DNA of 64,000 nucleotides, from positions 39,838-103,837 of the forward strand of contig DRGK01000017.1 in NCBI GenBank assembly GCA_011050075.1. Reading direction: 5' to 3'. This document shows, in pieces, positions 25,992-54,150 of this stretch (position 1 is the stretch's first letter; each line of letters opens with the position of its first letter). Below the pieces are notes generated by a model. That model saw only the letters and a list, made by a program, of their open reading frames with translations. It searched no databases and was not told the DNA's origin. The position numbers and the translations under genes are program-made. Source of the stretch: Candidatus Jorgensenbacteria bacterium. GTDB taxonomy: Bacteria > Patescibacteriota > Minisyncoccia > UBA6257 > GWB1-50-10.

Positions 25992-27272
25992 ATGCGGGCG
26001 TACAACCCGACATTTGGTGTTCGTTCCTATGTTATAATACACTCAATGCGAAACATCAAATCGCTGAAACTGGCTGTTGAACGACAAATCGCCAACCCGC
26101 CCGGTGAAGTTTCTATTATTGAACTCGTTGATTTATTTGTGGAGTACGCATACAGCTCGCGTGCATCGGATATTCATATTGAACCGGGTGACGATAACGT
26201 AATAGTACGCCTGCGTATTGACGGTATCCTGCAGGATATTTTCACTTTACCCAAGGAACTGCAGTCAGAAGTGATCAGCCGCATCAAAGTACTTTCGGGA
26301 CTAAAAACGGATATTCATCACGTACCGCAGGATGGTAGGTTCAAAGCGAAGATAGGGGATGTGGAGGAGATTGATGTTCGTGTTTCCATTGCACCTACAT
26401 ACTCCGGTGAAAATGCAGTGATGCGTATCTTGGCGGAGACATCGCAGAAGTTCAAATTGGAAGACATTGGGTTTGATAAAAAGCAGTATCGTATGATAAT
26501 ACGCGCGATACACAAGCCGTATGGTATGATCCTCGCGAATGGTCCGACCGGCTCTGGAAAAACCACAACGCTTTACACGATTATCAAGGAGCTCAGTACC
26601 CGTGCGGTATCAATTATCACCATTGAGGACCCTATTGAATATTCTATTGAAGGCATTACTCAGATTCCCGTCAATGTACAGGCGGGGTTGAATTTTGCGA
26701 ACGGACTGCGTTCTATCTTACGGCAGGACCCGAACATTATCATGGTAGGGGAGATTCGCGACACCGAGACGGCGAGTATCGCGGTTAATGCGGCACTGAC
26801 CGGCCATCTCATGCTCTCAACGCTGCACACCAATGATGCGGCAACCACATTTCCGCGTCTTCTGGATATGGGTGTTCCTCCGTTTCTCGTCGCCTCAACA
26901 GTTAATATTGTTATTGCACAGCGTCTGATGCGAAAGGTATGCCAGAGTTGCCGGCAGCAGAAGTTCCTTTCTATTGCTGATATTGAACATCTTGGTCCGC
27001 TCGCCGAGGTATATATAGAAAAGAAAGTGTATACCGTAGGTGCCGGATGTGATGATTGTGACGGACTGGGTTATCGGGGCAGAGTTGGCATCTTTGAAGT
27101 ACTGTCGGTTAATGAGGAAATTCGTTCACTGATTGCTAACCGCTCAAGCGCTTCACAGATCAAGCAGGCGGCCGTAAAAAATGGTATGCATACCATGACT
27201 CAGGGAGCATTTGAAAAAGCAATACAGGGTGAAACGACCATTGAAGAAGTACTCCGTATGATATATGAGTAA
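25992..27272 (+). CDS. pilB: Type IV pilus assembly ATPase (PilB/GspE family)
   Basis: Walker A GPTGSGKTT; Asp/His boxes; tetracysteine CQSC…CDDC; GYRGRVGIFEVL; short form lacking the long N-domain. Confidence 0.85.
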   Translation: MRAYNPTFGVRSYVIIHSMRNIKSLKLAVERQIANPPGEVSIIELVDLFVEYAYSSRASDIHIEPGDDNVIVRLRIDGILQDIFTLPKELQSEVISRIKVLSGLKTDIHHVPQDGRFKAKIGDVEEIDVRVSIAPTYSGENAVMRILAETSQKFKLEDIGFDKKQYRMIIRAIHKPYGMILANGPTGSGKTTTLYTIIKELSTRAVSIITIEDPIEYSIEGITQIPVNVQAGLNFANGLRSILRQDPNIIMVGEIRDTETASIAVNAALTGHLMLSTLHTNDAATTFPRLLDMGVPPFLVASTVNIVIAQRLMRKVCQSCRQQKFLSIADIEHLGPLAEVYIEKKVYTVGAGCDDCDGLGYRGRVGIFEVLSVNEEIRSLIANRSSASQIKQAAVKNGMHTMTQGAFEKAIQGETTIEEVLRMIYE

Positions 27273-28368
27273 AAAACCGCGTAAGAATATACAAGTATCA
27301 CTCTTGCATTTTTTCAATGTTACGTTGATACCGTTACAGGAAAAGGTTAACTTTGCGCGCCATCTCTCAATAGGCATCAAAAGCGGCTTGTCTTTGCTCG
27401 ATACGTTGGATTTGATCAAACAGCAGACGTCGTCCAAGCGTTTTTCTGCGATGGTATCTCGTATCATGGAGGATATTAATAACGGCCAGTCATTAGCAGA
27501 TAGTCTGGAACGGTTTAATTATGTGTTCGGCCACCTGTTTATTAGCATGGTTCGCGTCGGAGAAGTTGGCGGGAACTTATCGGGAACGCTCGCGTATCTT
27601 TCTAACGAACTAAAAAAACAGAGAGAGCTTCATAATCGTGTGAAGTCGGCAATGATATACCCCGCGATTATTTTGATAGTGACGATAGGCATCACCGTGT
27701 TTCTCACTCTCTTTATTTTTCCTAAAATTCTCCCTATATTTCAAAGCTTGGGCGTACAGCTGCCGGCCAGCACACGGCTGATCATACAGACACTTTCATT
27801 TCTTGATAATTTTGGATTCTTGTTATTAGTCAGTATGGCGGTTTTTGCTATTGCGGTACGGGCGCTTCTATTTATACAGAAAGTTCGATACGGTATGCAC
27901 GCAGTGTCTTTGCGAATTCCATTTGTCTCGACGTTAATCATTAATGTAACCATTACGAGCTTTAGTCGTGTGCTCGCGGCGCTCCTCAAGAGTGGTATGA
28001 CACTACTGGACGCGCTCGTAGTTGTAAAAACAACTATCTCAAATTTGGTGTATCAGAAGCACGTCGAACAAATGATAGATGTTGTTCGACGTGGTGAAGA
28101 GATGACCAAGTACCTCAAGAAATATCCAAAACTATTCCCGCCGATGCTTGTCGGAATGATCAAGGTAGGTGAGGGAACCGGTAATTTAGAAGACAACCTG
28201 CTCTATCTTGCCGAGTACTACGAAAGCGAAGTTGATGAGACCGTCAATAACCTAACCACCATTCTTGAGCCGCTTCTCCTGCTCTTTATGGGTGTCATCG
28301 TTGGATTCATAGCGCTTTCCATTATCACACCGATTTATAAAGTAACGCAGGGACTAAACATTCGCTAA
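27265..28368 (+). CDS. pilC: Type IV pilus / type II secretion platform protein (PilC/GspF family)
   Basis: Two GspF repeats, 3 TM, ~367 aa; overlaps the pilB stop. Confidence 0.85.
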   Translation: MSKKPRKNIQVSLLHFFNVTLIPLQEKVNFARHLSIGIKSGLSLLDTLDLIKQQTSSKRFSAMVSRIMEDINNGQSLADSLERFNYVFGHLFISMVRVGEVGGNLSGTLAYLSNELKKQRELHNRVKSAMIYPAIILIVTIGITVFLTLFIFPKILPIFQSLGVQLPASTRLIIQTLSFLDNFGFLLLVSMAVFAIAVRALLFIQKVRYGMHAVSLRIPFVSTLIINVTITSFSRVLAALLKSGMTLLDALVVVKTTISNLVYQKHVEQMIDVVRRGEEMTKYLKKYPKLFPPMLVGMIKVGEGTGNLEDNLLYLAEYYESEVDETVNNLTTILEPLLLLFMGVIVGFIALSIITPIYKVTQGLNIR

Positions 28369-28853
28369 TGCTGTCCCTCAAACGTAAAACCTATAAACCC
28401 CTACCTACCGGCAGGCAGGTAAAATCTCAAAAAGGGTTCACTCTCCTTGAGATAATGATCGTTATTGGCCTCTTTGCTTTGCTCGTAGGCATTAGTATAC
28501 CGTTTGGACTTGATGTATACCGCAGCTACGTACTAATTTCCGAAACACGAAATATGGTTAGTTTCCTGCGACGCGCGGAGACGTTGTCTTTCACCAATAC
28601 CAGGAATGATTCGTATGGAGTTATGGTCATGAACGATCGATTCGTTGTGTTTCGTGGTGCGTCGTTTGCAACGCGTGATACTGCATTTGATGAAGAGTAT
28701 CTACGCTCGCCATTAGTAATCGTGTCGGGTATCGCGCATATTGTGTTTGCTGCGGTGACGGGAAGACCAGACATAATGGGTACCACAACATTCAGCAACG
28801 GCGTAAATGAACAAACAGTATTTATTAATGAACATGGCACACTTTTCTGGTGA
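28368..28853 (+). CDS. Prepilin-type (class III signal) pseudopilin with long basic leader
   Basis: …KPLPTGRQVKSQKG|FTLLEIMIVIGLFALLVG: Gly(-1), Phe(+1), Glu(+5) then a hydrophobic helix. Confidence 0.75.
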   Translation: MLSLKRKTYKPLPTGRQVKSQKGFTLLEIMIVIGLFALLVGISIPFGLDVYRSYVLISETRNMVSFLRRAETLSFTNTRNDSYGVMVMNDRFVVFRGASFATRDTAFDEEYLRSPLVIVSGIAHIVFAAVTGRPDIMGTTTFSNGVNEQTVFINEHGTLFW

Positions 28854-30249
28854 AAAGGGACAATCTCTCATAGAAATTCTTATTGCGTTCACACTCATCG
28901 TGCTTGGTATCGGGTCGGCGACGATACTGGTGTTTGGTGGACAAGGGCTGCTTATTGACAGGGGAAATACGGTACAAGCTCGTTCTCGTGCACAGGAAGG
29001 GTTACTTGCGGTAGAGCAGATGATACAGAACGATTGGGATTCGGTGTCAAATGGTACGTATGGCATTGTGTTCACCAACGGTACCTGGCAGCTATCCGGC
29101 GAAAGTACTATTGATGACCGATATACACGGTATGTCTCGGTAACCAGTATTGATGATAATCGGAAGGAGATTACAAGCAGTGTTGTATGGGAAACGGGTG
29201 GAGAAGGTTCCCGGATTGTTGAGTTTGTAACACTGGTTACCAACTGGCAAAATGTTGCACCGCCGTCACCGGATCCGGGAGATACGGGAGGTGGCGGAGT
29301 GAGCGGTAACTGGCAAAACCCGAGAACACTGGGTTCTGTTGATCTGGGTCCGGGAAATGAAGCATCAGACATTGATGTGATCAATAAGATCGTTTATATG
29401 TCTGCCACCGCGTCTTCTAAGAACAAGCCTGACTTCTTTATTATTGATGCAACCGATGGGGAAAATCCGGTAATGATATCTGAGCTTAATACCGGTCCGT
29501 CACTCAATTCCATTGATGCCAGCGGCAACTATGCATATGTGGCAAACGATGATGCGCAGGCACAGTTGCAGGTTATTGATGTGAGTGACATTAATAATCC
29601 TTCTATTACTGCGTCCCTTGAAGTTGCTGCTGACGCTGGAGGTACTGCTATATTCTTTACTAACGCAAAAATATATCTGGGCACCTACCAAAACGGTGCG
29701 GCTGAGTTTTATATCATTGATGTTTCGGACCCCTTAAACCCCAGCGTACTAGGCTCGTATGAAATGAACGGAACGGTGCGTGATATATATGTACGTAATA
29801 GTCGTGCATATATCACCGTTGAACGGGAAGTGGATACGGTAGCTATACTAAACGTTTCAACTCCTTCATCAATCGTATCGGAAGGAGGCGAATATATTGA
29901 TGAAGCATACGGTATCATGAGCATACGACCAGCACTCACCTTTATCGGCATTGATACTGATTTGGTTATTGCGGATACTGCGAATGCAGCCGCAGTGGCT
30001 ACAATTGGCTCTATCGGAATTGGCGGGAACGTCAATGATATTGCGGTGAGGGATTATCTCGTCTTTATTGCAACATCAAATAACAACAAAGAGTTCCAGA
30101 CAATTAACGTATCTGATCCAAGTAACCCATCAGTTCATTCTTCTTTTAATTTTTCGCAGGTTGGAACCGGTATTGATTACGAGGATAATATTGTCTACAT
30201 CTCAGTGAGAAGCAATGACGCTTTACGTATCATCACATCATCTCCATGA
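28807..30249 (+). CDS. Pilin-like protein fused to an LVIVD-repeat beta-propeller domain (candidate pilus tip/adhesin)
   Basis: N-terminus …GEKGQSLIEILIAFTLIVLG (prepilin-like); at least 4 LVIVD-type repeats (AYVANDDAQAQLQVIDVSDINNPS; IYLGTYQNGAAEFYIIDVSDPLNPS; AYITVEREVDTVAILNVSTPSS; VFIATSNNNKEFQTINVSDPSNPS). Confidence 0.65.
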   Translation: MNKQYLLMNMAHFSGEKGQSLIEILIAFTLIVLGIGSATILVFGGQGLLIDRGNTVQARSRAQEGLLAVEQMIQNDWDSVSNGTYGIVFTNGTWQLSGESTIDDRYTRYVSVTSIDDNRKEITSSVVWETGGEGSRIVEFVTLVTNWQNVAPPSPDPGDTGGGGVSGNWQNPRTLGSVDLGPGNEASDIDVINKIVYMSATASSKNKPDFFIIDATDGENPVMISELNTGPSLNSIDASGNYAYVANDDAQAQLQVIDVSDINNPSITASLEVAADAGGTAIFFTNAKIYLGTYQNGAAEFYIIDVSDPLNPSVLGSYEMNGTVRDIYVRNSRAYITVEREVDTVAILNVSTPSSIVSEGGEYIDEAYGIMSIRPALTFIGIDTDLVIADTANAAAVATIGSIGIGGNVNDIAVRDYLVFIATSNNNKEFQTINVSDPSNPSVHSSFNFSQVGTGIDYEDNIVYISVRSNDALRIITSSP

Positions 30250-30764
30250 AGACTCATAAACCCCTACCTACCGGCAAGCAAGTAAAATCTCAAAAAGGAT
30301 TCACGCTTATTGAAGCGCTTATCTATGCCACGCTATTAGGTATCTTTTTAGGCAGTGTCATTATTGTAGTTGGGAACATTCTTGCCTCTACCGATAGCAC
30401 ACTGGTGCGTAATGAGGTACTTGCCAATCAAGAGTTCGTTGAACAGAAACTTTCATGGCTTGCAGAACAGGCGACCGCGGTTACAGAACCACTCTCAGGA
30501 AGTTCCTCAACGCGAGTAGTTTTCACTGAACCGATATCCGGCACTAATCCGGCAATTTTTGAACTGCAGGACGGGAAAATTATGCTAACCCTCGGTTCCG
30601 GTGAAAGCGCTGCGCTGACCAATAATCGCGTGCGCGCGTCCGATTTCACCATTACCCACTACACATTAAACGGTGCATCACTGATACGAGTCTTATTTGG
30701 ACTTGAGCACATTGTCTACAGTCAAGTAACGAGCACGACCACACTCACCTTTATTATTCCGTAG
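30246..30764 (+). CDS. Prepilin-type pseudopilin with long basic leader (paralog of 28368..28853 at the N-terminus)
   Basis: MKTHKPLPTGKQVKSQKG|FTLIEALIYATLLGIF. Confidence 0.75.
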   Translation: MKTHKPLPTGKQVKSQKGFTLIEALIYATLLGIFLGSVIIVVGNILASTDSTLVRNEVLANQEFVEQKLSWLAEQATAVTEPLSGSSSTRVVFTEPISGTNPAIFELQDGKIMLTLGSGESAALTNNRVRASDFTITHYTLNGASLIRVLFGLEHIVYSQVTSTTTLTFIIP

Positions 30765-30767
30765 CAT

Positions 30768-31163
30768 ATGCAACACGATACATATCAACAGGGGTACGTA
30801 GCGGTTATGAGCGCTATTATCATTACCGCTATTCTGCTTGTCGTCGCATTGACCTTTAGTTCCAGTAGTTTTATGGGTAGGTTTGATACACAAGCAGTGG
30901 AATTCAAGATACTGACACGGAACTTAGCGCAGGGATGTATCGCGCATGCACAGTTAATGCTCGCGCTGGGAAGCTATACTGGCAATGAGGATGTGGTAGT
31001 GGGTGCATATACCTGCCGCGTCGTCTCCGTTACGCAGGGGAGCGGTATCATAACAGTGCAGGTAACTGCAATCATAGAGGACCACACTACAAATCTTGAA
31101 GCAGTCTTGGATAGCGCTACACTCGCTATTAATTCAGTTATAGAGATAAGTACGTTTGAGTAA
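30768..31163 (+). CDS. Membrane-anchored hypothetical protein in the pilus operon (PilX/minor-pilin-like?)
   Basis: N-terminal hydrophobic helix (VAVMSAIIITAILLVVAL) without a canonical G-F-x-x-x-E; operon position. Confidence 0.4.
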   Translation: MQHDTYQQGYVAVMSAIIITAILLVVALTFSSSSFMGRFDTQAVEFKILTRNLAQGCIAHAQLMLALGSYTGNEDVVVGAYTCRVVSVTQGSGIITVQVTAIIEDHTTNLEAVLDSATLAINSVIEISTFE

Positions 31164-31815: not shown

Positions 31816-32088
31816 ATGAAATTGCCGGAGTTTTTTAAACCAATTTTGTGGTCTTATGACTTTCCTGCCATAGATTCTGAGAAGAACAAGAAAGTTATTA
31901 TTGTGAATACGATAAATTACGGTGATTTAAAGCATTGGCATTGGTTGATACAACATTATGGGAAAGAGGCAGTTAAAGATGTTTTAGAACAGATCCCTTC
32001 AAGTGAAATAAGACCGCGGGCGCTTCGTCTCGCGACAACTATTTTCTCTATTAAAAACTTCAATTATGCACCTCGAGGTATTAACTGA
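31816..32088 (+). CDS. Small protein partner of the downstream nucleotidyltransferase (possible antitoxin-like component)
   Basis: 90 aa; overlaps the next ORF by 23 nt (coupled); AT-rich segment. Confidence 0.35.
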   Translation: MKLPEFFKPILWSYDFPAIDSEKNKKVIIVNTINYGDLKHWHWLIQHYGKEAVKDVLEQIPSSEIRPRALRLATTIFSIKNFNYAPRGIN

Positions 32089-32683
32089 GAAGGGCAAAGA
32101 AATTTTTTCCAGGCTTGATCGTTTTAATAAATTTTACCTCGCTGGTGGGACAGCATTAGCTTTGCAAATCGGACATAGGGCTTCAATTGACTTTGACTTA
32201 TTTTCCAAAAAAGAAATCCAGAAGGACTTTCTGTCTGAGATTGAGGAAGCTTTTCCTGGAGAGAACATATCAGTAGTTGTAAATAATCCCGATGAGGTAA
32301 CTGTTTTCGTAAGTGAAACGAAAGTTACTTTTTTGAAATATCCTTTCCCGTTGATATATGACCTTGTTAATTATGAAAGCGTAAACTTAGCAACCATTAA
32401 AGAAATAGCCGGAATCAAGGCCTATACAATTGGCAGAAGAGGATCTTTTAAAGATTACGTAGATTTATACTTTATTCTTTCTGAGAAGTATTTTTCTCTG
32501 AATGAGATTATTGACGTAGCTGAAAAGAAATACGGAAGTGATTTTAACTCACGACTTTTTCTTGAACAGCTTCTTTATTTGGAAGATATTACCGATACTG
32601 AAATTGTATTTTTAAAAGACAGCGTAGATAAAAAAGAACTAAGAAAATTTTTTGAGGAAGAAATAAAAAAGATTAAGATATAA
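32066..32683 (+). CDS. AbiEii/DUF1814-like nucleotidyltransferase (toxin-like NTase of a two-gene module)
   Basis: FYLAGGTALALQIGHRASIDFDLF matches the AbiEii N-terminal GGTAL…S/EDxDF core. Confidence 0.5.
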   Translation: MHLEVLTEKGKEIFSRLDRFNKFYLAGGTALALQIGHRASIDFDLFSKKEIQKDFLSEIEEAFPGENISVVVNNPDEVTVFVSETKVTFLKYPFPLIYDLVNYESVNLATIKEIAGIKAYTIGRRGSFKDYVDLYFILSEKYFSLNEIIDVAEKKYGSDFNSRLFLEQLLYLEDITDTEIVFLKDSVDKKELRKFFEEEIKKIKI

Positions 32684-35131: not shown

Positions 35132-36547
35132 ATGCCCCGCTTTTTAAATAGAAATTCCTTAGTTTTCATAGCACTTGCTACACTTGCAACTTTGCTTGTC
35201 TTTACCGTTTTGCCCTCTATCACAAATGCAGGCGGTACGTTTACCACCAACCAAGACAGTTTTAGGTTTAAAGGCGATACAGGCGGAGAAACGGCAACAG
35301 ACTGGATTGATGCCGAAGACACGAATATTACTCAAGCAAAAAACAGCAACTTTCGCATACGTATTCACTTTCATGAATCAGGTAATGCAGCCGGCGATGT
35401 GACACCTCTTTTAGAGTACAAAACTGCCTCTGGTAATGCATGTGCTAATACGACAGGGTGGACAACTATTACAACTGCAACGACAAATGCATTTGCTCTT
35501 GTCGATTCGTCACAGTTTGTTGAAGCAGTTGCAACTACTGAACAGTTATCAAGCTTTGGCGGAATAGGTTTTGTTGCTGGAGAACTCTTGGACCAAACTA
35601 ATCCCGGTACAATCATTACCATCGGTGCAAAAAACGAAAGTGAGTATGTATGGAACATGAAAGCAACGGACAATGCGGTCGATGGCACGGCGTACATATT
35701 TCGGGTGAGTAATAACGGCACCAACTTAACAAACTATAATGCCTGCCCGCAGGTAACAGTTCCTGCGGGCAATGCACCGCCCGTTGTTTCAAACGTTGCG
35801 TTGGATGGAGGAACAGCAATCACGCTCACAGAAAACACAACTAAAGCTGTTAGCGCTACGGCAGATGTATCAGATCCGAACGGCGCTGACGATATTATTT
35901 CAGCGACCTCAACCATCTACCGTTCCGGTGTCGGTGCGGGATGTACCGCTGATGATGAGAATTGCTACAAAATAGCGAGCTGCACGTTTTCTGGTGCGAC
36001 GAGTACCGTGACCTGCACGGCGAATATACAGTTCTTTGCCGACCCGACCGATGCAAGCTCTACTGCTTATTCTGCTCAGGATTGGCAGGCAGAAATTACG
36101 GTAACCGACTCTGCCAGTGCAACCGGTGCATCGAGCACTCTATCCGGCGTAGAGCTCAATACACTCTGGGCTATCGATATAACCGCAACTATTAACTACG
36201 GGGCTGTTAGTCCAACCGCAGATACAGGGAGTACAAATCAAAGCGTTACGGTTACCAACACAGGTAATGCGGCGATCGATATAGAGGCATCGGGGACTGA
36301 TATAACGCTTGGCGGTAGTACGATAGGAGTTGCCAATCAAAAGTATGCGACCTCCACCTTTACGTACTCGAGCTGTACAATCTGTACGGCACTTTCCTCA
36401 ACCCCCGCTGCATATGAGGTTGATTTACTCAAGCCGACCTCGGCCACGCCGGTTACAGATTTAATCTACTGGGGACTTGCGGTGCCAAACGGCACTGCGC
36501 AAGGGGTGCACAGCGGAACCAATACCTTTACCGCAATAGGCGATTAG
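35132..36547 (+). CDS. Secreted Thr/Ala-rich surface protein, paralog A
   Basis: Signal peptide; conserved Cys-containing module (RSGVGAGCTADDENCY); C-terminal VTVTNTGN… CARDB/DUF11-like module; ends …GTNTFTAIGD. Confidence 0.55.
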   Translation: MPRFLNRNSLVFIALATLATLLVFTVLPSITNAGGTFTTNQDSFRFKGDTGGETATDWIDAEDTNITQAKNSNFRIRIHFHESGNAAGDVTPLLEYKTASGNACANTTGWTTITTATTNAFALVDSSQFVEAVATTEQLSSFGGIGFVAGELLDQTNPGTIITIGAKNESEYVWNMKATDNAVDGTAYIFRVSNNGTNLTNYNACPQVTVPAGNAPPVVSNVALDGGTAITLTENTTKAVSATADVSDPNGADDIISATSTIYRSGVGAGCTADDENCYKIASCTFSGATSTVTCTANIQFFADPTDASSTAYSAQDWQAEITVTDSASATGASSTLSGVELNTLWAIDITATINYGAVSPTADTGSTNQSVTVTNTGNAAIDIEASGTDITLGGSTIGVANQKYATSTFTYSSCTICTALSSTPAAYEVDLLKPTSATPVTDLIYWGLAVPNGTAQGVHSGTNTFTAIGD

Positions 36548-36593
36548 TACAGGGTTGAATATGATATAATATACATAAAGAGGATGTAATAAT

Positions 36594-37541
36594 ATGAGAA
36601 GTACACTTTCTCTTCTTTTAAAAGTTTATATTTTCGCGATTCCCCTCGCGCTGCTACTGGTCGGGGGACTTTTAATGCTCACAAACACTATTTTAGCAGG
36701 CACTTCAAGCACATCAGTAACCGTTCAAGGCGCTGTCCCCACAGTTACCGTTGTTAACATTTCTCCCGATCCAATTATCCCGACCGAAAATGCAACGACG
36801 AGCATTACCATTACTGCAACAATTTCCGATTCAAACGGATGCGATGATGTATTCACAAGCGGTACTATCGCGGTCGCACTCTATCGGTCAGGTGTTGGTG
36901 CCAGTTGCTCGGTCGATGACAACAACTGTTATCAGAACATCACTTGGGCGGAGGTTGGCAATACCTGCGGGGGCGGTGCAGATACAAGCGGGGATATGGT
37001 TGCCACGGCAACGATATGGTACTTTACCGAAGCAACCGATGCGAGTTCAACATACTCAGGGGAAACATGGCAGGCTCAGGTCAAGGCAGTTGATGAGTCT
37101 AATGCAAGCTCTACCGCTACCGACGCGTCGCCCCCTGAGCTCAATTCGGTATATGCTCTCACTGTTGACAGTGCCATTGCGTACGGTTCTATGTCAGCAG
37201 ATGCTACGAGTACCTTGTCTGAGATTGGACAGTCAACGACGACGGTAACCAACACGGGAAATTACAAGATTGATACCGAGGTATCGGGTACCGATATGAC
37301 GGGTTCAGGTACCATTATTGCAAGCAAACAAAAATATGCTACCTCATTGTTAGGATATGAATCACTTACATACACACTCTCAACGTCTGCTACTGCAAGA
37401 GATTTAAATATTGTGAAAGCGACCTCTTCTTCTACGCCGTCAACGCAAGATACCTACTGGGGTATTTCTATCCCTAGCGCTCAGGCGGAAGGAGGTTATA
37501 GCGGAACCAACACATTTACCGCTATCTATTCAGCCGATTAG
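36594..37541 (+). CDS. Secreted Thr/Ser-rich surface protein, paralog B of 35132..36547
   Basis: Signal peptide; same modules (RSGVGASCSVDDNNCY; TTVTNTGNYKID…; ends …GTNTFTAIYSAD). Confidence 0.55.
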   Translation: MRSTLSLLLKVYIFAIPLALLLVGGLLMLTNTILAGTSSTSVTVQGAVPTVTVVNISPDPIIPTENATTSITITATISDSNGCDDVFTSGTIAVALYRSGVGASCSVDDNNCYQNITWAEVGNTCGGGADTSGDMVATATIWYFTEATDASSTYSGETWQAQVKAVDESNASSTATDASPPELNSVYALTVDSAIAYGSMSADATSTLSEIGQSTTTVTNTGNYKIDTEVSGTDMTGSGTIIASKQKYATSLLGYESLTYTLSTSATARDLNIVKATSSSTPSTQDTYWGISIPSAQAEGGYSGTNTFTAIYSAD

Positions 37542-37576
37542 TGCAGAGTCTACCAATATAGTAGCTAACGCGGCAA

Positions 37577-38608
37577 TTGTCCGCGCTTTGTTTTCTTAGT
37601 ATGATTACAGATATGCATATACGTTCTCTAACGTTGATTGTCATTACGTTGTCCTTACTTGCACCATCGGTAGTGGGTGCGTTCGGGGTTTCACCTCCAT
37701 TTATCACAGTACATAAACTTGTGGCTGGCTCGCGTTATGAAACAACAATTACCCTCGTTCAGGGACAGCCGGATGTTGATTTGGAAGTTAAGGCAGTGTT
37801 TGATGTACCTGAAAAGATTAGAGAATGGTTCAGTGTTGATAAGGGATATCAGTTTATAATCCCCGCTGGCGTTCAGCAGTTCCCGATACAAGTTGTTATT
37901 CAGGTTCCGAAAGATACCGGTCTTGGTATTTATAACGGGCACTTACGGATTAACACTGTTCCACAACGGAAAGAAGGTGAACAGATCGCAATCTCCGTTG
38001 GCGCACGCATCGATATCAACATTACGGTAGGGGATGATATTGTCGTTGATTTTTCAGTTAAGAAAATTGACATCTCTGACATTAGAGAAAACGAGTCACC
38101 TCAGATCGTTGTCACTATAGAGAATACGGGGAATGTTCCCATTACACCGGACAGAGCAACATTTGACCTGCTTGATAAGTACGGGGAAGTACGGCTCGGC
38201 TTTGCACAAACGGAGGACTTGCCAGAGACGCCAGCCTTTGAAACTAAAACTTTTGTCGTAGCATTTCCCATAGACATTAAGCTCGGCGTGGGAGAGTACT
38301 GGGGTGAAGCACGATTATATAGAGGTGGGACAATAATTGGGGATGTAAAAACTATCTTCAATGTAACTCCAAGACCAAATTATATACTCTTTATTGGTAT
38401 TGGCTTACTTATTATTGGAGCCGGTGTTTCTATATTTATATTTAAAAAGAAAGCAAGTCGTAAGCCAACGAGTCGTAAGAGAACAGTAACAAAAAAGAAA
38501 GCTGTAAGGAAAACTGCCCGTAAACCAAAAAAACAAGTTAGTAGTAAGAAAAAATTGAATAAGAAAAAGACAGTAAAAACAAAGCAAAAGAAGAGCATTG
38601 GCTCATGA
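37577..38608 (+). CDS. Secreted CARDB-like surface protein with C-terminal TM anchor and poly-lysine cytoplasmic tail
   Basis: Signal peptide; …VVTIENTGNVPITPD…; TM (ILFIGIGLLIIGAGVSIFIF), then KKKASRKPTSRKRTVTKKKAVRK…. Confidence 0.5.
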   Translation: MSALCFLSMITDMHIRSLTLIVITLSLLAPSVVGAFGVSPPFITVHKLVAGSRYETTITLVQGQPDVDLEVKAVFDVPEKIREWFSVDKGYQFIIPAGVQQFPIQVVIQVPKDTGLGIYNGHLRINTVPQRKEGEQIAISVGARIDINITVGDDIVVDFSVKKIDISDIRENESPQIVVTIENTGNVPITPDRATFDLLDKYGEVRLGFAQTEDLPETPAFETKTFVVAFPIDIKLGVGEYWGEARLYRGGTIIGDVKTIFNVTPRPNYILFIGIGLLIIGAGVSIFIFKKKASRKPTSRKRTVTKKKAVRKTARKPKKQVSSKKKLNKKKTVKTKQKKSIGS

Positions 38609-40149
38609 AATGGTACGCGTTTACGGCAGTTTGTTTCGCAGTAATCGGACTCATGATAACGGTGGGCATTACAAATGCTGGAACAGCTTCCGTAACGGTA
38701 ACGGTAACGCTTGCCGAGTGCTCTGACAGTATTGACAACGACGGTGATTTTTTAACCGACTATCCCAATGACACGGAGTGCGATTCGGGTACCGATAACA
38801 GTGAAAACATTGCCGGCACCGAGACGCATGCAACATCTACTATTGAAACAAGCGGGGGCAGTTTTTCTTTTGATAATGCTGATAGTTTAGCCGTTGATTT
38901 TACGTTTCAGAACGGGTTTCATGGTAGTTCAGTACGGTTATTCGTGAACTCGTATGCAACTAGCTCTTTTGAATCGAGCAAGCCAGCACCTTCTGGGAAG
39001 AGCTTCGTTGGTAAAACATACGACATCATTCTGTACGAGAACGCATCACCGAATAATTCTATTGCAACAACTTCCAAAGCTATTACCATCGTGATGCAAT
39101 ATTTGGATAGTGATGTAAGCAGTATCGATGAAAGCAACGTTCTGCCGTATCGTTGGAGTACAAGCACATCGGCGTGGGCGATAATATCTGGCAGCTCACT
39201 TGATACATCAAACAATAAAGTAACTTTTTCTACCACCGATTTCAGTTCATTTAGCTTGCTCGGCACAAACCTTTCTGAATTCCAATGCAGTGACGGTATT
39301 GACAATGATGGGGATGGTAAGATTGACTATCCATCCGACCCTGGGTGTTCATCAACAACCGATGATAATGAAACAGACCCGCAGCAGGCACCAGGTGGCG
39401 GTGGAGGCGGCGGTGCTACGATAACAGCACCGCCTCAGGTTACATTCAGCGGGTTAGCATATCCCGGCAGTAAAGTAACAATACTGAAAGATGCTCAAGT
39501 AGCTGCGGTAACTATAGCCGGTCCCGATGCGAAATTTAAAGCGGGCCTGTCCAAACTCTCAACCGGAAACTACAATTTCGGCATTTGGGCTGCTGATACA
39601 TCCGGTCGAAGATCGGTTACACATACATTTGCACTGAGCGTTAAGCCCGGCTCTTCTGTTACGGTAAGCGGCATTTTCCTGCCTCCTACCATATCAATAG
39701 ACAAAAGTGAGGTAAGGAAAGGTGATGTATTGGGTATTGCGGGGCAGAGCGCTCCTGAGGCTAACGTTTCTCTTATTGTTCATTCACATTCTATTGTGAA
39801 GAAGGTGACCGTTGATAAGAGCGGGGCGTGGTTTTATAAACTGGACACCACCGAGCTTGAGTATGGTAAGCACTCCACACAGGCGAAGTCAGAAACGGAA
39901 AACGATATCAGTTCACTCTCGCAACTACTGCTTTTCAAAGTTGGTACAAAAAGCAAGAAAGCCATTCCCTTAGCAGTAGTAGAACTTAAGGGTGACGTGA
40001 ACAGCGATGAGAAAGTTAATTTGGTTGATTTCAGTATCGCAGCGTATTGGTATAAAAGACCGTCCCCCCCATCCGCCGTTGATTTAAACAACGATGGGAA
40101 AGTTGATTTAGTGGACTTCAGTATTATGGCATACTGGTGGACGGGATAG
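38605..40149 (+). CDS. Secreted protein with Ca-binding Asp-rich Cys-flanked motifs and a C-terminal dockerin domain
   Basis: Signal peptide; CSDSIDNDGDFLTDYPNDTEC and CSDGIDNDGDGKIDYPSDPGC; C-terminal GDVNSDEKVNLVDFSIAAYWY…DLNNDGKVDLVDFSIMAYWW, a dockerin type-I-like duplicated Ca-loop/helix. Confidence 0.65.
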   Translation: MKWYAFTAVCFAVIGLMITVGITNAGTASVTVTVTLAECSDSIDNDGDFLTDYPNDTECDSGTDNSENIAGTETHATSTIETSGGSFSFDNADSLAVDFTFQNGFHGSSVRLFVNSYATSSFESSKPAPSGKSFVGKTYDIILYENASPNNSIATTSKAITIVMQYLDSDVSSIDESNVLPYRWSTSTSAWAIISGSSLDTSNNKVTFSTTDFSSFSLLGTNLSEFQCSDGIDNDGDGKIDYPSDPGCSSTTDDNETDPQQAPGGGGGGGATITAPPQVTFSGLAYPGSKVTILKDAQVAAVTIAGPDAKFKAGLSKLSTGNYNFGIWAADTSGRRSVTHTFALSVKPGSSVTVSGIFLPPTISIDKSEVRKGDVLGIAGQSAPEANVSLIVHSHSIVKKVTVDKSGAWFYKLDTTELEYGKHSTQAKSETENDISSLSQLLLFKVGTKSKKAIPLAVVELKGDVNSDEKVNLVDFSIAAYWYKRPSPPSAVDLNNDGKVDLVDFSIMAYWWTG

Positions 40150-40168
40150 TGAAAACTAAACTGCAATT

Positions 40169-41068
40169 ATGAAACAATTCTTGATCAGTATTTGTCTCTT
40201 ATTCTTCGCATTCGGCATAAGTATGGTGAGTGCCGTTGAGCTATCTTTTGATTCTCCCGTATATAAAATAGGACTGGGGAAATTTATTGCTATTGATGTC
40301 TTAGTAGATTTCCAAGGTGAGGCAATCAATACATTAGAAGGAAGAATACACGTTCCCGAATCTTTTGATATTGTAAACACAAACACTGCGGGATCGGTGA
40401 TAAATCTCTGGATTCAGGAACCGAAAATAGAAGTTAATAGTGTCTATTTCTCCGGCATCATACCGGGTGGATTTGGTAGTCAGCTTAGTGACGGTACGGG
40501 CATCGGTAACGAGTTGGAGATATTAACTATTACATTAGAAGCCAAGAGAGAAGATGCAAACAGCATTACGGCAGGGGACACCAAAGCACTTTTGAACGAT
40601 GGATTTGGAACGGAAACCGATATAGCTACAAAGCCATGGTTTTATGAAATTTCTGAAAGCTATACCGGGGGAGGCGTTGAAGCAGTAATAGATAGCGAGC
40701 CGCCCGGGAATTTTAAGCCGGAAGTTACCAGAAGTGAAACCGTGTTTTCAGGGCAATACTTTGTAGTTTTCAGTACACAAGATAAAGAATCGGGAATGAA
40801 ACGCTATGAGGTTGCAGAACAGCGCGGAAGAAAAACTGAGAACTACTCAGTTTTGGACTGGAAAATTACAAAAAGCCCCTATATTTTGGAAGACCAGACA
40901 TTAAGGAGCTACATCTACGTAAAAGCAATTGACAATACGGGGAATGAGATAATTGCAGTAGTTCCGCCGCATAACCTATTAGTACGGTATTGGTATGTAC
41001 TCATTTTGTTTATAATAATAGTAGGAATTAGTTTCGCTTATACTAAAACAAAGCGAAAGAATTCATGA
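40169..41068 (+). CDS. Membrane-anchored cohesin-like domain protein 1
   Basis: Signal peptide; beta-rich domain alignable to type-I cohesin (…GRIHVPESFDIVNTNTAGSVINLWIQEP…); C-terminal TM (YVLILFIIIVGISFAY) plus KTKRKNS. Confidence 0.5.
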   Translation: MKQFLISICLLFFAFGISMVSAVELSFDSPVYKIGLGKFIAIDVLVDFQGEAINTLEGRIHVPESFDIVNTNTAGSVINLWIQEPKIEVNSVYFSGIIPGGFGSQLSDGTGIGNELEILTITLEAKREDANSITAGDTKALLNDGFGTETDIATKPWFYEISESYTGGGVEAVIDSEPPGNFKPEVTRSETVFSGQYFVVFSTQDKESGMKRYEVAEQRGRKTENYSVLDWKITKSPYILEDQTLRSYIYVKAIDNTGNEIIAVVPPHNLLVRYWYVLILFIIIVGISFAYTKTKRKNS

Positions 41069-42147
41069 AGAAAAAGACATTACTCTTAAGTACGATACTG
41101 ATTTTATTTGGCGTGGTTACAACTGCCCACGGGGCTAACTTGTATTTCTCTCCATCGGGAGGAAGTTTCTATAAAGGCGAGAATTTTACCATTGGTGTTT
41201 TCGTAAATACAGACAGGGCCACTAATGCCATCTCCGGCGTCTTAACGTTTCCCACTAGATACGTTGAGGCGGTGAGCGTGCGCAAGAGTAATTCCATAGT
41301 CAATCTTTGGGTTCAGGAACCCTCATTTTCCAATATAGGTGATTTCGGCAATATCAGGTTTGAAGGTGTTATTCTCAACCCAGGCTTTACTGGCACCAGA
41401 GGAAAAATACTTGATGTTGTTTTTCGAGTAAAGAACAATGGTTTTATGAATTTGGAATTCGTTGAGGTCGCTATTCTAGCTAACGATGGGTTAGGAACAA
41501 ATATAGCAGTTCCGGACGGTGAAGCTAGCTTTGTACTAAAATCAAAACCGGTATACTCACCGGAGTCTGTAGAAATAACTGGAGGAAAACAAGAATTATC
41601 TGCAACCTCAACGCCACCGATTATAATAGTCAGGGAAGTAAGACCAGAACCACCATCAGGTATACTTGGATTATGGGAAGTTTTACCGACCTGGATAAAA
41701 ACCATCACTTTGGCTCTTGTTGGTCTGGCAACAATTCTACTCGGACTTGTTATTATCAGTCTCGGTATAATTGTTTTGATTTGGCTTTGGAGTTATATAT
41801 GGCGTAGGAGGAATATAATTGAGGGTTGGCTTGTATCATTTCCGAGAGCTGTAAATCATTTTACACGCAGAGTCCTTGTGTTTATACGCGGAGCAGAAAA
41901 GGAAATAAAAGGAGATTTGAAATATAGCATTCCACGAGTGAAAGACATAGTTAAGGAAGCAGGGCGCGAGCCACCGTTAAAGCAGTTAGTGAAAGATTAC
42001 TTTAGCTCAATACGTAAAATCATAAAACGCTTTTTCACGAAAAATGAATCGTGGCAAGAGAGTGTACTAGATGACATATCAAATTCTAAAACACCTGATC
42101 CTAAAAGGTCTGAAGATATAATACAGGAAGAGGAAGAACAGCTATGA
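41065..42147 (+). CDS. Membrane-anchored cohesin-like domain protein 2 with conserved cytoplasmic tail
   Basis: …GENFTIGVFVNTDRATNAISGVLTFPTRYVEAVSV… / …GKILDVVFRVKNNGFMNLEFVEVAIL… resemble CipA cohesin strands; TM; ~100-aa basic tail. Confidence 0.5.
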   Translation: MKKKTLLLSTILILFGVVTTAHGANLYFSPSGGSFYKGENFTIGVFVNTDRATNAISGVLTFPTRYVEAVSVRKSNSIVNLWVQEPSFSNIGDFGNIRFEGVILNPGFTGTRGKILDVVFRVKNNGFMNLEFVEVAILANDGLGTNIAVPDGEASFVLKSKPVYSPESVEITGGKQELSATSTPPIIIVREVRPEPPSGILGLWEVLPTWIKTITLALVGLATILLGLVIISLGIIVLIWLWSYIWRRRNIIEGWLVSFPRAVNHFTRRVLVFIRGAEKEIKGDLKYSIPRVKDIVKEAGREPPLKQLVKDYFSSIRKIIKRFFTKNESWQESVLDDISNSKTPDPKRSEDIIQEEEEQL

Positions 42148-47033: not shown

Positions 47034-47350
47034 GTATAGAACAACCAATACAGGAACCGTCACCAATGGATGCTTTCCGTCAAGAACTTGAAGAATTTCG
47101 TTCAGCAGAGCAAAAAGAAGGAACCGCAAAACATCTTTCAATGTCGAAAGACAGGGAGCCCGTTGATTTCAATCTGCTCACTGAGGAAGATATGGGCATC
47201 TGGGAAAGATGTAAAGCAGGTGAACTGACGCGCAATGATATCGAAATGTATAAAGATAGTATTCCGGAGGAAGAGGTTGATCGAAAAGAATTTGCGGCTT
47301 TTGTGGTCCACAAATGGATGGAGCAGATGTATAAGGAGGGTAAACTATAG
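47030..47350 (+). CDS. Acidic hypothetical protein
   Basis: 106 aa, overlaps the htpX stop; no recognisable motifs. Confidence 0.4.
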   Translation: MSIEQPIQEPSPMDAFRQELEEFRSAEQKEGTAKHLSMSKDREPVDFNLLTEEDMGIWERCKAGELTRNDIEMYKDSIPEEEVDRKEFAAFVVHKWMEQMYKEGKL

Positions 47351-47434
47351 GAAGGGTGCCAGAGTGGTCCAATGGAACAGCTTGGAAAGCTGTGGCTCGA
47401 AAGGGTCTCGTGGGTTCGAATCCCACCCCTTCCG
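47350..47434 (+). tRNA. tRNA-Ser (anticodon GGA), long variable arm
   Basis: GGAAGGGTGCCAGAGTGG…anticodon loop TTGGAAA…long variable arm…GTGGGTTCGAATCCCACCCCTTCCG. Confidence 0.8.
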
Positions 47435-47570
47435 CAGACTGCTTTCCGCCACATTATTTTATAGTGTGTTGGAAAGTGATCTATGGGGTGGAGTTCGAAC
47501 CAGTGAGAATCTTCCCTATTTGTCTAAGAGCGAAGCGATTAGTTACAAACAGCAATGCCGCTCGTAGCGG

Positions 47571-47630
47571 TCCCACCCCTTCCGCAAATCGCTTTCCGTC
47601 GCACCATTTTATGGTGTACTGGAAAAAGTT
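47571..47630 (+). repeat. Direct repeat of the tRNA-Ser 3' end plus ~40 nt of downstream sequence (att-site-like partial tRNA duplication)
   Basis: tcccaccccttccgca at 47421-47436 and 47571-47586, with ~80% identity continuing ~40 nt past each copy. Confidence 0.55.
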
Positions 47631-47713
47631 TCTGTTTTCATTTGACCTTTATTAGTGCTTGTGTTAATTTACTCACAGAAACCTGACAACTAAATATAGA
47701 AAGGTGGTTTCGT

Positions 47714-48343
47714 ATGAGAGGTACATTGTTCTTTGAGATTCCTGATGATCAGGAGATTATAGTGAAGCTCGTTGAAGCCGTGCCCCCGAACTGGTCATGG
47801 GTGGACGGCAGTCTCCATGCTCCCGAGATGCTCATTGCCTCTGGGCAAGTCGAAGAGCATACTGGATTCGCAGTAAGGCGTTCCCACGGAAATAACCCAA
47901 CCATCGTCGGAAGCTACAACCAAGACGAGCGTAAGCAAAGAAACCCCGATCTCTTCGCAATCATGGTGGATCAGAAGTTACCCGGTTTTATCTTCTTTGA
48001 TGAGGCAGGGTACAGGACTCCTATCATCAGCACTGAACTCGCCAAGCGCATCACTGTCGGTTTCCTTCAAAAAGGCTACCGTGGTGGCCTCCGATTTTTC
48101 AAGGACTGCTACGGCAACTGTAAATTCGACAATCCTGCACGGTGCGACATAGCCTCCAAACCGTGGCATGGAGGCCCGGCGTCTTATGAAGAAGGAGGAC
48201 CACAACCCGCCCGGATAAAGATAGAATGGGAAGGTAAATATGGCGGTGAGGAAGAGGACATCGCGCCCATCGTCACTGTGTGTCGCTCCCTTAATCTGCG
48301 CGAGTATACACTTGCGGAACCAGTAGAAGCTGCAGCTTCCTAA
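47714..48343 (+). CDS. Hypothetical protein, GC-rich (~50%), probably horizontally acquired
   Basis: 209 aa, no recognisable motifs; GC clearly above the local background; next to the tRNA-Ser repeat. Confidence 0.45.
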   Translation: MRGTLFFEIPDDQEIIVKLVEAVPPNWSWVDGSLHAPEMLIASGQVEEHTGFAVRRSHGNNPTIVGSYNQDERKQRNPDLFAIMVDQKLPGFIFFDEAGYRTPIISTELAKRITVGFLQKGYRGGLRFFKDCYGNCKFDNPARCDIASKPWHGGPASYEEGGPQPARIKIEWEGKYGGEEEDIAPIVTVCRSLNLREYTLAEPVEAAAS

Positions 48344-48363
48344 AATCGTATGAGATGTTTAAT

Positions 48364-48397
48364 GGCGCCAACATAATAGTTGGCGCCCTTTCTTTTT
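48364..48397 (+). terminator. Rho-independent terminator
   Basis: GGCGCCAACataataGTTGGCGCCctttcttttt. Confidence 0.65.
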
Positions 48398-48468
48398 AAG
48401 AATTTGCTGCCATAGAGTAAGATAGGTTATCATTATTAATACAAAGGTAAAATATAATATAAAAATAT

Positions 48469-49128
48469 ATGATAAAAATTAATCAAGAAGGTTTCGCGAA
48501 CATAGCTCTCATTGTTCTCGTTGTTGTGCTTGTCAGCGTAGTAAGTTATTTTGCGTTCGTCAAAAAATTACCTGATGTCATTGAACAGGCAACTACTCCT
48601 ACGTCTTCAGTAAGCAGTGAAACTATGCCATGGATTTCTTACACCTATTCATCCATAGAATCGGGGATTTTACCAAATATAACTTTCAAATATCCCTCTT
48701 TGTTCGGTGATAATCCCACCTTCATTTCATCTCGCAACACGAACCGGCCTGGAAATATCTCTGATGACTGGGGAGGTCTCATGGAATTTAATCCGACAGG
48801 AGCGTTTGAGGATCGCGGTCTCCGGATAGAATTCTTTAAAAGAGCAAACGCCAAGGATAATTTTGAAAGTTACGTGACTGAATCTGCTGCAGCTGGCGAT
48901 TGGACCTCTCCAAAATACTTTCAAACTGATAACTATCGGGTTGCTCGATTGAGACTTGCTTCAGATTCTCACTATGACGCAGATGTGAGCTGGTATTTTA
49001 TAGAACTTCCCAATAAAAGCATCTTGGCAATTTCAACAAGTGGAGATAAAAAATATCTCTTTGATGATGACCAAGATGGAAATTCCACAAGAGATAAGAT
49101 TATCTCGACGCTTACAATCGTTCAATAA
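48469..49128 (+). CDS. Membrane-anchored/secreted hypothetical protein
   Basis: N-terminal signal anchor (IALIVLVVVLVSVVSYFAF); 219 aa. Confidence 0.45.
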   Translation: MIKINQEGFANIALIVLVVVLVSVVSYFAFVKKLPDVIEQATTPTSSVSSETMPWISYTYSSIESGILPNITFKYPSLFGDNPTFISSRNTNRPGNISDDWGGLMEFNPTGAFEDRGLRIEFFKRANAKDNFESYVTESAAAGDWTSPKYFQTDNYRVARLRLASDSHYDADVSWYFIELPNKSILAISTSGDKKYLFDDDQDGNSTRDKIISTLTIVQ

Positions 49129-49177
49129 GGCAACTTGCCGCCAAAGAAAAAACCTGAAATCCGTTTAAATCAGACAT

Positions 49178-49212
49178 AAAAAACCCGCCATCAGTGATAA
49201 ATGGCGGGTTTT
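49178..49212. terminator. Bidirectional terminator between convergent genes
   Basis: AAAAACCCGCCATcagtgataaATGGCGGGTTTT. Confidence 0.7.
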
Positions 49213-49254
49213 AACGCAGTGTCAGGAGCGTAAGTTCTGGAGGATTCAGAATTT

Positions 49255-51999: not shown

Positions 52000-52032
52000 A
52001 TATAGTACTATACCATGTACGTGGCGTATTGC

Positions 52033-52488
52033 TTAATTTGAGCGCACGAGTGAAACGGGCGGCTCAATCAACACCTCTATATCTGTTTGATGAATACCAA
52101 ACTCTTTTGCCAACTGCTTAGAAGGCATCCAGATATCAACGAAGTTCGTCTTCCGCCGATGCATACGATCTTTGACGACAAACACTTTATCACCAAATAA
52201 CTCGGGGATGCGCACCTCGGTGCCAAAGGGCAAAAAGTTCGCGGCGACAATACCATCACGCACCCGTTCACCCGATGCAGTAATGAATGGCGTATCGTCA
52301 GTTTCTTCAGGCGTACTTGAGTATGCCGTTATCCAAATATTGGTAAGCGTACGAGATATATCACTGGAAACCTCTTCTTCTTGTGATTGTTCGTTAGATA
52401 TGGGAGCGTTAGGAGTAGAAAACCCAAACATAAACACCATACTCGCTACCAATACCATATATGCGGTTTTTATATACATTAGTTCCAA
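52033..52488 (-). CDS. 3D-domain protein (MltA-like C-terminal domain) with signal anchor
   Basis: TAYSSTPEETDDTPFITASGERVRDGIVAAN…GTEVRIPEL…VVKDRMHRR…VDIWMP. Confidence 0.65.
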   Translation of the reverse strand: MELMYIKTAYMVLVASMVFMFGFSTPNAPISNEQSQEEEVSSDISRTLTNIWITAYSSTPEETDDTPFITASGERVRDGIVAANFLPFGTEVRIPELFGDKVFVVKDRMHRRKTNFVDIWMPSKQLAKEFGIHQTDIEVLIEPPVSLVRSN

Positions 52489-52564
52489 ACAAAAACCCCC
52501 TGACGGGGTATACTTAAGACGCGTTCGTAAAGTATCATATATCTACTCATAAGTCAAGACACAT

Positions 52565-53287: not shown

Positions 53288-53443
53288 AGAAAAGCCCCAT
53301 ACATTGTTGATAGAATATTCGAAGCTCACTGGAGAACTCCGCGCTTGCGTGGAGTTTTTCACGTCCTAAGGTTTATTTTCTCTAACCATAGAAAATTTAC
53401 AAAAGCACAAAATATATTTAGAATGAACGAAGGTATTCCTATT

Positions 53444-53527
53444 GCCCAGGTGTCGGAACTGGTAGACGAGCTGGCTTGAGGGGCCAGTGAGCGCAAGCTC
53501 GTGCGGGTTCGACTCCCGCCCTGGGCA
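53444..53527 (+). tRNA. tRNA-Leu (anticodon GAG)
   Basis: GCCCAGGTG…anticodon loop TTGAGGG…long variable arm…GCGGGTTCGACTCCCGCCCTGGGCA. Confidence 0.8.
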
Positions 53528-53533
53528 CAACTT

Positions 53534-53559
53534 AAAACACCCCGCAGCGGGGTGTTTTT
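53534..53559. terminator. Terminator hairpin shared by tRNA-Leu (+) and rplS (-)
   Basis: AAAACACCCCGCagcGGGGTGTTTTT. Confidence 0.65.
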
Positions 53560-53563
53560 AAAT

Positions 53564-53890: not shown

Positions 53891-54006
53891 ATCTGTAGGG
53901 TAGGGATAGTATAGAAAAAAACAACAGATTAATCAATATCACTTGTATGCTGTGTCACATTTTCATACAATGATGAAGATCCATAACTTACTTGTTCTTC
54001 TCACTT

Positions 54007-54079: not shown

Positions 54080-54150
54080 CATATACTTCTTTCAAAATTG
54101 ACGGTACACTACAACAACTGTCCATATATACCCACGTATCTCTCTCATTT

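Follow-up and report, generated by a model that had tools for sequence, protein, structure and literature searches.

A 480-aa protein encoded by an ORF at 28807-30249 (+) of the 64,000-nucleotide window, the whole stretch of Candidatus Jorgensenbacteria DNA that was analysed, is probably a modular minor pilin of a type IV pilus and belongs to the tip-priming complex; in it, an LVIVD-type beta-propeller serves as the effector and most likely as the binding module. The protein has three parts: a prepilin-type N-terminus, a small pilin beta-sheet module followed by a Pro/Gly-rich linker, and the LVIVD beta-propeller (Table 1). Its gene occupies the fourth position of seven in a compact PilB/PilC cassette, and this position is conserved across species.

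Table 1. Features of the pilus cassette and of the LVIVD pilin. Identities are medians between the window proteins and their orthologues in 51-68 species loci.
Feature	Coordinates	Strand	Details	Median identity
PilB/GspE-type extension ATPase	25992..27272	+	gene 1; Pfam T2SSE 406 bits	60%
PilC/GspF-type platform protein	27265..28368	+	gene 2; Pfam T2SSF 199 bits, two domains; conserved synteny	44%
Minor pilin, 161 aa	28368..28853	+	gene 3; canonical KGFTLLE prepilin motif; N_methyl 30.1 bits, above cutoff	32%
65-nt direct repeat, copy 1	28386..28450	+	leader and cleavage-site part of the 161-aa minor pilin gene	
LVIVD pilin	28807-30249	+	gene 4	29% (pilin module)
Leader peptide of LVIVD pilin	28807..28860	+	residues 1-18, ends ...EKG; G18 nearly invariant	
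Alpha-1 helix of pilin module	28861..29031	+	residues 19-75: Q+1, S+2, E+5, then hydrophobic alpha-1N	
Segment between alpha-1 helix and linker	29032..29244	+		
Pro/Gly-rich linker (...APPSPDPGDTGGGGVSGNW...)	29245..29316	+	residues 147-170 (about 146-172 in the model)	
Seven-bladed LVIVD beta-propeller and stop codon	29317..30249	+	residues 171-480	46% (propeller)
Minor pilin, 172 aa	30246..30764	+	gene 5; KGFTLIEALIY; N_methyl 28.2 bits	30%
65-nt direct repeat, copy 2	30249..30313	+	86% identical to copy 1; same part of the 172-aa minor pilin gene	
Pilin-like protein, 131 aa, without Glu5	30768..31163	+	gene 6; QQG↓YVAVMSAIII; no Pfam match	34%
Probable major pilin, 156 aa	31231..31701	+	gene 7; GGFTLIELLVVIGIIAILAG; N_methyl 28.9 bits; most conserved pilin of the cassette	59%

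The N-terminus of the protein, ...SGEKG↓QSLIE (the arrow marks the predicted cleavage site), features a short polar or basic leader that ends in Gly at -1. QSLIE is followed by ILIAFTLIVLGIGSATILVF, with Glu+5 preceding the hydrophobic stretch of about 20 residues (alpha-1N), and residues 18-34 as a whole read GQSLIEILIAFTLIVLG. G18 is kept in at least 90% of the 31 aligned family members as well as in nearly all listed orthologue N-termini. In the 31 aligned homologues and the orthologues of 69 species loci, position +5 is E, occasionally D, and the N-terminal motif is [K/R/x]G↓QS(L/T)(L/V)E(I/V)LIA. Position +1 is mostly Q, with F, M, L or I in several orthologues (KGFTIIEAILA, RGFSLIELLIA, SGMSTLEILIA); such variability is expected of the N-methylated first residue of a mature pilin and thus speaks against a Sec signal. 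The N_methyl signature (PF07963) remains below its cutoff of 21.2 bits, scoring 15.6 bits on the full protein and 18.6 bits on the N-terminal 150 aa, because Q rather than F stands at +1, which is the main deviation. No match to TIGR02532 was returned by the NCBIfam scan. An N_methyl match at E<=1 is seen in 11 of 22 family members, the best with E 3.6e-06. Judged from the sequence, the prepilin-type (class III) reading of this N-terminus is correct, and a Sec signal peptide is ruled out by the conserved G-1/E+5 motif together with the predicted 55-residue helix into which the hydrophobic stretch continues. In-frame ATG codons at 28807, 28828 and 28834 leave the start codon uncertain, and P0001, a database protein of 473 aa that is 98% identical, begins at the second of these (28828). 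The choice of start alters the length of the leader alone and does not affect the cleavage motif; leader length and sequence also vary among family members.

The three-part organization is reproduced in the predicted structure. In an AlphaFold2 model built from a 31-sequence alignment (mean pLDDT 86.3, pTM 0.70), residues 1-16 of the leader are disordered, and a six-stranded sheet is formed by residues 83-145. A continuous helix of 55 residues (21-75) is predicted in both AlphaFold models. The arrangement is that of the lollipop fold, a long alpha-1 helix against an antiparallel beta-sheet, and the predicted pilin module is similar in fold to GspK and GspI, which are tip pseudopilins. A profile search with this module returned N-terminal-motif matches only, at E of about 0.5. 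In the linker, pLDDT drops to 52-78, and a GDTGGGG core is conserved. The propeller comprises 28 strands within residues 173-477 of the AlphaFold2 model, giving seven four-stranded blades; LVIVD-like motifs begin at residues 254, 301, 345 and 430, and three further blades lie near residues 210, 385 and 473. The Pfam LVIVD family (PF08309) matches at 42.7 bits (E 3.6e-11), above its gathering cutoff of 20.2, Beta_propel (PF09826) matches at 26.0 bits against a cutoff of 22.4, and the ‘choice-of-anchor B’ propeller of NCBIfam matches below threshold only. Nearly all of the 120 listed homologues likewise carry a pre-computed PF08309 assignment. No experimentally determined structure was found for any LVIVD propeller or sequence relative, the best PDB match (E 0.0049) being an unrelated WD-repeat protein. 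The structural neighbours of the modelled propeller are generic WD40-type propellers along with the bacterial proteins Lp49 and YncE, and they give no information on the ligand. The first-pass annotation had described this ORF as a prepilin-like segment, rather than an ordinary Sec signal, fused to an LVIVD propeller; the GQSLIEILIAFTLIVLG segment and all four of the repeats that it quoted are present, and both the PF08309 score and the modelled helix and seven-bladed propeller bear the description out.

The genes that surround the LVIVD pilin are those of a pilus assembly system. In addition to its Pfam match, the extension ATPase matches the NCBIfam models type_IV_pilB (482 bits) and GspE (491 bits), both under the equivalog cutoffs. 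The stops and starts of genes 1-6 overlap or almost abut: the platform protein gene begins 8 nt inside the end of pilB, and the LVIVD stop codon and the ATG of the 172-aa minor pilin share a 4-nt overlap, which is consistent with translational coupling. The cassette is bordered by an opposite-strand tRNA-Gln gene upstream and a DUF6922/AbiEii pair downstream. Promoter and terminator scans of the cassette gave counts no higher than shuffled sequence. Among the 37 window ORFs scanned with Pfam, no prepilin peptidase (PilD), PilT or PilMNO was present, and six-frame searches of the window for the A24 peptidase motif and for PilB paralogues found none.

A GFTLIE-type N-terminus is kept in orthologues of the 161-aa minor pilin, which corresponds to the ‘H’-type subunit by gene order only, and GFTLIE..LIY is kept in those of the 172-aa minor pilin. 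The 156-aa probable major pilin has a weak GspG-like match over residues 14-124 in NCBIfam. The 131-aa protein differs from the other four cassette pilins, all of which retain Glu5: most of its roughly 65 orthologues carry G↓Y(I/V)A(I/V)xSA(I/V)II, and their +5 residue is never acidic. By analogy, it is a candidate for the first-assembled, tip-most subunit, since both the K subunit and Streptococcus sanguinis PilA likewise lack Glu5 (PMC9934059). In comparison with the GspH-I-J-K and FimU-PilV-PilW-PilX sets, no cassette subunit reaches the family cutoffs for GspH/I/J/K or PilV/W/X; NCBIfam assignment of the neighbouring minor pilins to GspH, GspJ and GspK yielded N-terminal-motif matches only, far under the cutoffs, and neither TIGR01707 (gspI) nor TIGR02523 (PilV) matches the LVIVD pilin at E<=0.1. 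Two LVIVD pilin homologues carry the JGI label PilV. The distribution of Glu5 is also different, as the bulky K subunit lacks it in the classical set whereas here the bulky LVIVD subunit has it and a separate small subunit does not.

The fusion is widespread. A word-indexed search returned 516 relatives of the LVIVD pilin, and the best 120 of these measure 444-609 aa and almost all cover >90% of the query, with source names that are either Patescibacteria lineages (Jorgensen-, Lipton-, Brennerbacteria, Paceibacterota) or generic labels. A scan of one genome per GTDB species identified 69 loci, all in MAGs, with labels that include Jorgensen-, Wolfe-, Brenner-, Lipton-, Azam-, Falkow-, Uhr- and Colwellbacteria as well as Paceibacterota. 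Some TPA bins among these loci bear automatic ‘Saccharibacteria’ or ‘Gammaproteobacteria’ labels, which were judged untrustworthy. The identical seven-gene order is found in nearly every one of the 69 loci with sufficient flank, and a PilB orthologue likewise lies upstream in nearly every related locus of this kind. The LVIVD pilin and the first minor pilin are swapped in one locus, and in a few loci the major pilin gene is located elsewhere or on the opposite strand. The pilus placement proposed by the first-pass annotation is strengthened by the minor pilin genes that neighbour the gene within a conserved PilB/PilC cassette and by the GspK/GspI-like module, and the fusion that it described recurs in 69 species loci. 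When 1.84 billion cluster representatives were searched exhaustively with a profile, 10,488 proteins were returned at E<=1e-30. The best 150 of these contain a first group of full-length proteins (450-510 aa), about 85 in number and each standing for its own 50%-identity cluster; a second group of 790-2,000 aa, including P0121, P0192, P0209 and P0219, that features the same N-terminal pilin module with two or more LVIVD propellers; and a third group of giant multi-propeller proteins that match via the propeller repeats only.

A mechanism can be proposed from what is known of minor pilins. Four core minor pilins (H, I, J and K) form a staggered complex that primes pilus assembly and remains at the tip, and the subunit on top can lack Glu5 because there is no subunit above it that would require charge neutralisation (PMC9934059). 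In diderm bacteria, the non-pilin PilY1 sits on the minor-pilin complex, while S. sanguinis, a monoderm, has two bulky modular pilins that retain Glu5, PilB and PilC, and a small I-like one that does not, PilA (PMC9934059). The cassette described here matches the S. sanguinis pattern in having one small subunit without Glu5 (131 aa), three minor pilins with Glu5, of which one bears a large module on a flexible linker, and a single well-conserved major pilin; from this we infer that the LVIVD pilin enters the priming complex and is displayed at or beside the tip. Prepilin peptidase would cut the protein after Gly18, releasing a mature form that starts with QSLIE..., and Glu5 would act as the docking residue used by pilins entering the growing filament. 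The hydrophobic helix and GspI/GspK-like sheet would allow assembly with the three neighbouring minor pilins into a priming complex at the tip, with the 131-aa protein as its first, top-most subunit. The linker of roughly 25 residues would then carry the acidic 34-kDa propeller, which is too large for the filament body and would be displayed at or beside the tip, a size argument that has also been made for PilB (Raynaud et al., 2021, PMC8179133). In that position the propeller would most likely bind a target surface, plausibly that of a host cell in ultrasmall bacteria whose cultivated relatives are all episymbionts. It would fill the effector role that belongs to the non-covalently attached PilY1 in diderms and to modular pilins in monoderms.

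InterPro entry IPR013211 is presumably the one that represents the LVIVD repeat. In Dataset S1 of the modular pilin census, about 30 proteins are listed with IPR012902 followed by 1, 2, 4, 5, 6 or 13 copies of IPR013211, and the text of the paper describes an 860-aa Falkowbacteria protein in which this ‘motif of unknown function’ occurs 12 times (Raynaud et al., 2021, PMC8179133). In modular pilins, a short linker connects an N-terminal pilin module to a C-terminal domain that lacks pilus specificity (Raynaud et al., 2021, PMC8179133), and the LVIVD pilin has all three elements, its C-terminal domain carrying an independent signature. In the census, the architecture was merely counted, without structure, operon context or distribution. 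IPR013211 appears elsewhere in the literature in one further paper, which is also among the few that mention the ‘LVIVD repeat’. No paper on the LVIVD-pilin fusion was found beyond the architecture table. The novelty implied by the first-pass annotation is thus not sustained: the architecture has already been catalogued, though not analysed, so this kind of modular pilin is known, and an analogous propeller-bearing pilin, PilX2, has been studied. An InterPro-based census would nevertheless probably miss the LVIVD pilin itself and much of its family, owing to the sub-threshold N_methyl signature. What is new relative to the literature found is the seven-gene cassette, the position of the gene within it, the GspI/GspK-like module, the Q+1 signature, the seven-blade model and the pattern of conservation.

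Another close system is PilX2 of Nanosynbacter lyticus TM7x (Saccharibacteria). This minor pilin combines a heptabladed propeller with a non-canonical signal peptide and has been proposed as a type IV pilus adhesin; cells that lack it make pili, yet their host binding is halved and they are impaired in competition (PMC11623550). The PilX2 propeller is described as RCC1-type (PMC11623550) as opposed to the LVIVD type seen here, and the two are compared by description, with no homology implied; RCC1 has no Pfam match in the LVIVD pilin at E<=0.1. The organisms differ as well, as the LVIVD family is found in MAGs labelled Jorgensen-, Wolfe-, Lipton-, Brenner-, Falkow- and Uhrbacteria and Paceibacterota. 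In S. sanguinis, PilB and PilC, which accompany PilA, carry other effector modules (vWA and lectin, respectively) in place of an LVIVD propeller (PMC8179133, PMC9934059), and there are three minor pilins rather than the four found here, with no sequence homology between them. The PilY1/PilC proteins of diderm type IVa pili likewise present a seven-bladed propeller at the tip with the core minor pilins, the probable location of the LVIVD propeller, and are encoded within a minor pilin cluster. PilY1, however, is large, is not a pilin and has an ordinary signal peptide; it docks non-covalently and has its adhesive modules N-terminal to the propeller, whereas the LVIVD protein has a pilin N-terminus and pilin module, and its covalently fused propeller is the sole extra domain. 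Membership in the PilY1 family (PF05567, IPR008707) was considered and rejected, as no signature is present and PilY1 is not among the top structural matches listed. The suggestion in the first-pass annotation that the LVIVD protein differs from PilY1 in fold is overstated, since PilY1 also has a beta-propeller as its conserved C-terminal domain (PMC8179133, PMC11623550). What sets the two apart is the propeller family and the covalent fusion to a pilin.

The propeller is more conserved across species than any minor-pilin body (median identity of 46% vs 29-34% in 55-68 species loci), which is unlike the usual fast-evolving, host-specific adhesin. Conservation peaks in blades 1 and 7, which adjoin the linker and close the ring (top-residue frequency of 0.79 and 0.82), while blades 3-6 are variable and blade 5 is both the least conserved (0.49) and the site of indels. 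In all 31 of 31 sequences the propeller is strongly acidic, with a pI of 4.05-4.99 (median 4.2) and a net charge of -9 to -32. Its invariant acidic residues are accompanied by a conserved D457-x-E459-x-N461 loop (GIDYEDN). The proposal of a pilus-tip adhesin in the first-pass annotation stands in part: the pilin-propeller fusion is firm, and the adhesin role is a reading with which the high conservation of the propeller sits uneasily.

This conservation could instead reflect a function that lies mainly in assembly or regulation, in which the propeller, like the C-terminal propeller of PilY1, stabilises or caps the priming complex or senses a cation and controls extension, with ligand binding being secondary. 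The nearly invariant linker-adjacent blades, the fixed membership of the gene in nearly every cassette and an acidic surface compatible with cation binding all agree with such a role, as does the view that the propeller of PilY1 serves as a carrier module docking onto minor pilins (Raynaud et al., 2021, PMC8179133). Several observations nonetheless make it rather unlikely. TM7x without its propeller pilin PilX2 is still piliated and is reduced in host binding (PMC11623550), and the docking performed by the propeller in PilY1 is already supplied here by the pilin module. The variation of blades 3-6 and the indels in blade 5 are what a ligand-facing surface might show, and the Pfam scan found no PilY1 family signature in the LVIVD pilin. 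It is also conceivable, if doubtful, that the two roles are combined, the LVIVD propeller pilin being the Patescibacteria counterpart of the conserved PilY1 propeller made covalent. It would then be an obligatory, slow-evolving cap fused to an I/K-type pilin that both nucleates assembly and recognises a ligand shared by many hosts, for example a glycan of the cell wall or a bound cation. If this were true, the larger relatives, which carry at least two propellers, would bring diversity in specificity, and much of the uncultivated Patescibacteria would share a general, targetable attachment organelle.

The acidity of the propeller weighs against a further possibility, namely that the cassette builds a DNA-uptake (competence) pilus with the propeller as a DNA receptor comparable to ComZ or ComP. 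Direct DNA binding is disfavoured by a pI below 5 in every one of the 31 sequences, competence stayed at the wild-type level in TM7x pilin mutants, that of the propeller pilin included (PMC11623550), and the cassette contains no ComEA or ComEC gene, which makes this possibility very unlikely. That the protein remains outside the filament, with its N-terminal helix as an uncleaved membrane anchor and the propeller as a cell-surface protein encoded in a pilus operon, is in keeping with the sub-threshold N_methyl score, the unusual Q at +1 and the absence of a SignalP PilD signal for the analogous TM7x pilins PilX1 and PilX2 (PMC11623550), but is extremely improbable given the family-wide conservation of G-1 and E+5, the replacement of Q at +1 by F, M, L or I, the predicted lollipop fold like that of tip pseudopilins, the same slot between minor pilin genes across 69 species loci, and the overlap of the LVIVD stop with the start of the next pilin gene, consistent with translational coupling.

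The reading of the LVIVD protein as a modular minor pilin with a binding propeller does not change the understanding of type IV pili, introduces no new principle and would not surprise a pilus specialist. It does indicate that motif-based censuses undercount modular pilins, because Q at +1 lowers the N_methyl score under threshold. All cultivated Patescibacteria live attached to host cells (PMC11623550). For host recognition outside the Saccharibacteria, the LVIVD pilin family provides a concrete candidate: a minor pilin with a propeller, whose gene keeps a constant position among the seven of a pilus cassette in at least 69 species. The propeller could be expressed alone and is a reasonable target for ligand screening. 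Ultimately, the LVIVD family is a good and widely conserved candidate for the attachment module of the pili of uncultivated Patescibacteria.

The 131-aa pilin-like protein has no match in Pfam or NCBIfam, and its N-terminal motif, which lacks the docking residue at pilin position +5 (Glu5), is kept in similar form in most of about 65 orthologues. This protein is probably the tip-most, first-assembled subunit, a nucleator like K or PilA, the Glu5-less tip subunits known elsewhere. On its downstream side, the pilus cassette is adjoined by a type IV toxin-antitoxin pair.

Features in and around the pilus cassette and in the rest of the window
Feature	Window position	Strand	Description
65-nt direct repeat, copy 1	28386-28450		86% identical to copy 2
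65-nt direct repeat, copy 2	30249-30313
Pilin-like protein	30768-31163		131 aa; prepilin-like N-terminus G|YVAVMSAIII, without Glu5
Type IV toxin-antitoxin pair	31816-32683		DUF6922 protein and AbiEii nucleotidyltransferase toxin
Six consecutive ORFs	35132-42147	+	299-514 aa each
First ORF of six	35132-36547	+	Thr/Ala-rich
Big_6/dockerin ORF	38605-40149	+
UPF0182 membrane protein	49255-51999	-	914 aa
tRNA-rich region	47350-57530		6 of the window's 8 tRNA genes
tRNA cluster (~1.1 kb)	53444-54519		Leu, Thr, Thr, Trp

The six consecutive ORFs may form a surface-protein island. Pfam matches are nearly absent from them, the exception being one whose product combines a Big_6 Ig-like domain with a dockerin at its C-terminal end. 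The first ORF has a signal-peptide-like N-terminus.

Larger relatives of the LVIVD pilin (P0121, P0192, P0209, and P0219; 790-2,000 aa) each carry at least two LVIVD propellers behind the same N-terminal pilin module (KGQSLVE, KGFLLVE, and similar). In a separate set of giant proteins (1,200-6,900 aa), 8-21 stretches per protein match the propeller profile.

The two copies of the direct repeat fall in the minor pilin genes bordering the LVIVD gene, each spanning the stretch that codes for the leader and the cleavage site of its pilin (KT[Y/H]KPLPTG[R/K]QVKSQKGFTL). Because the leaders of orthologous minor pilins from other species are dissimilar to one another, the repeat looks like a recent gene conversion within this genome. 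Recombination between the two copies would result in loss of the body of the first minor pilin together with the LVIVD gene.
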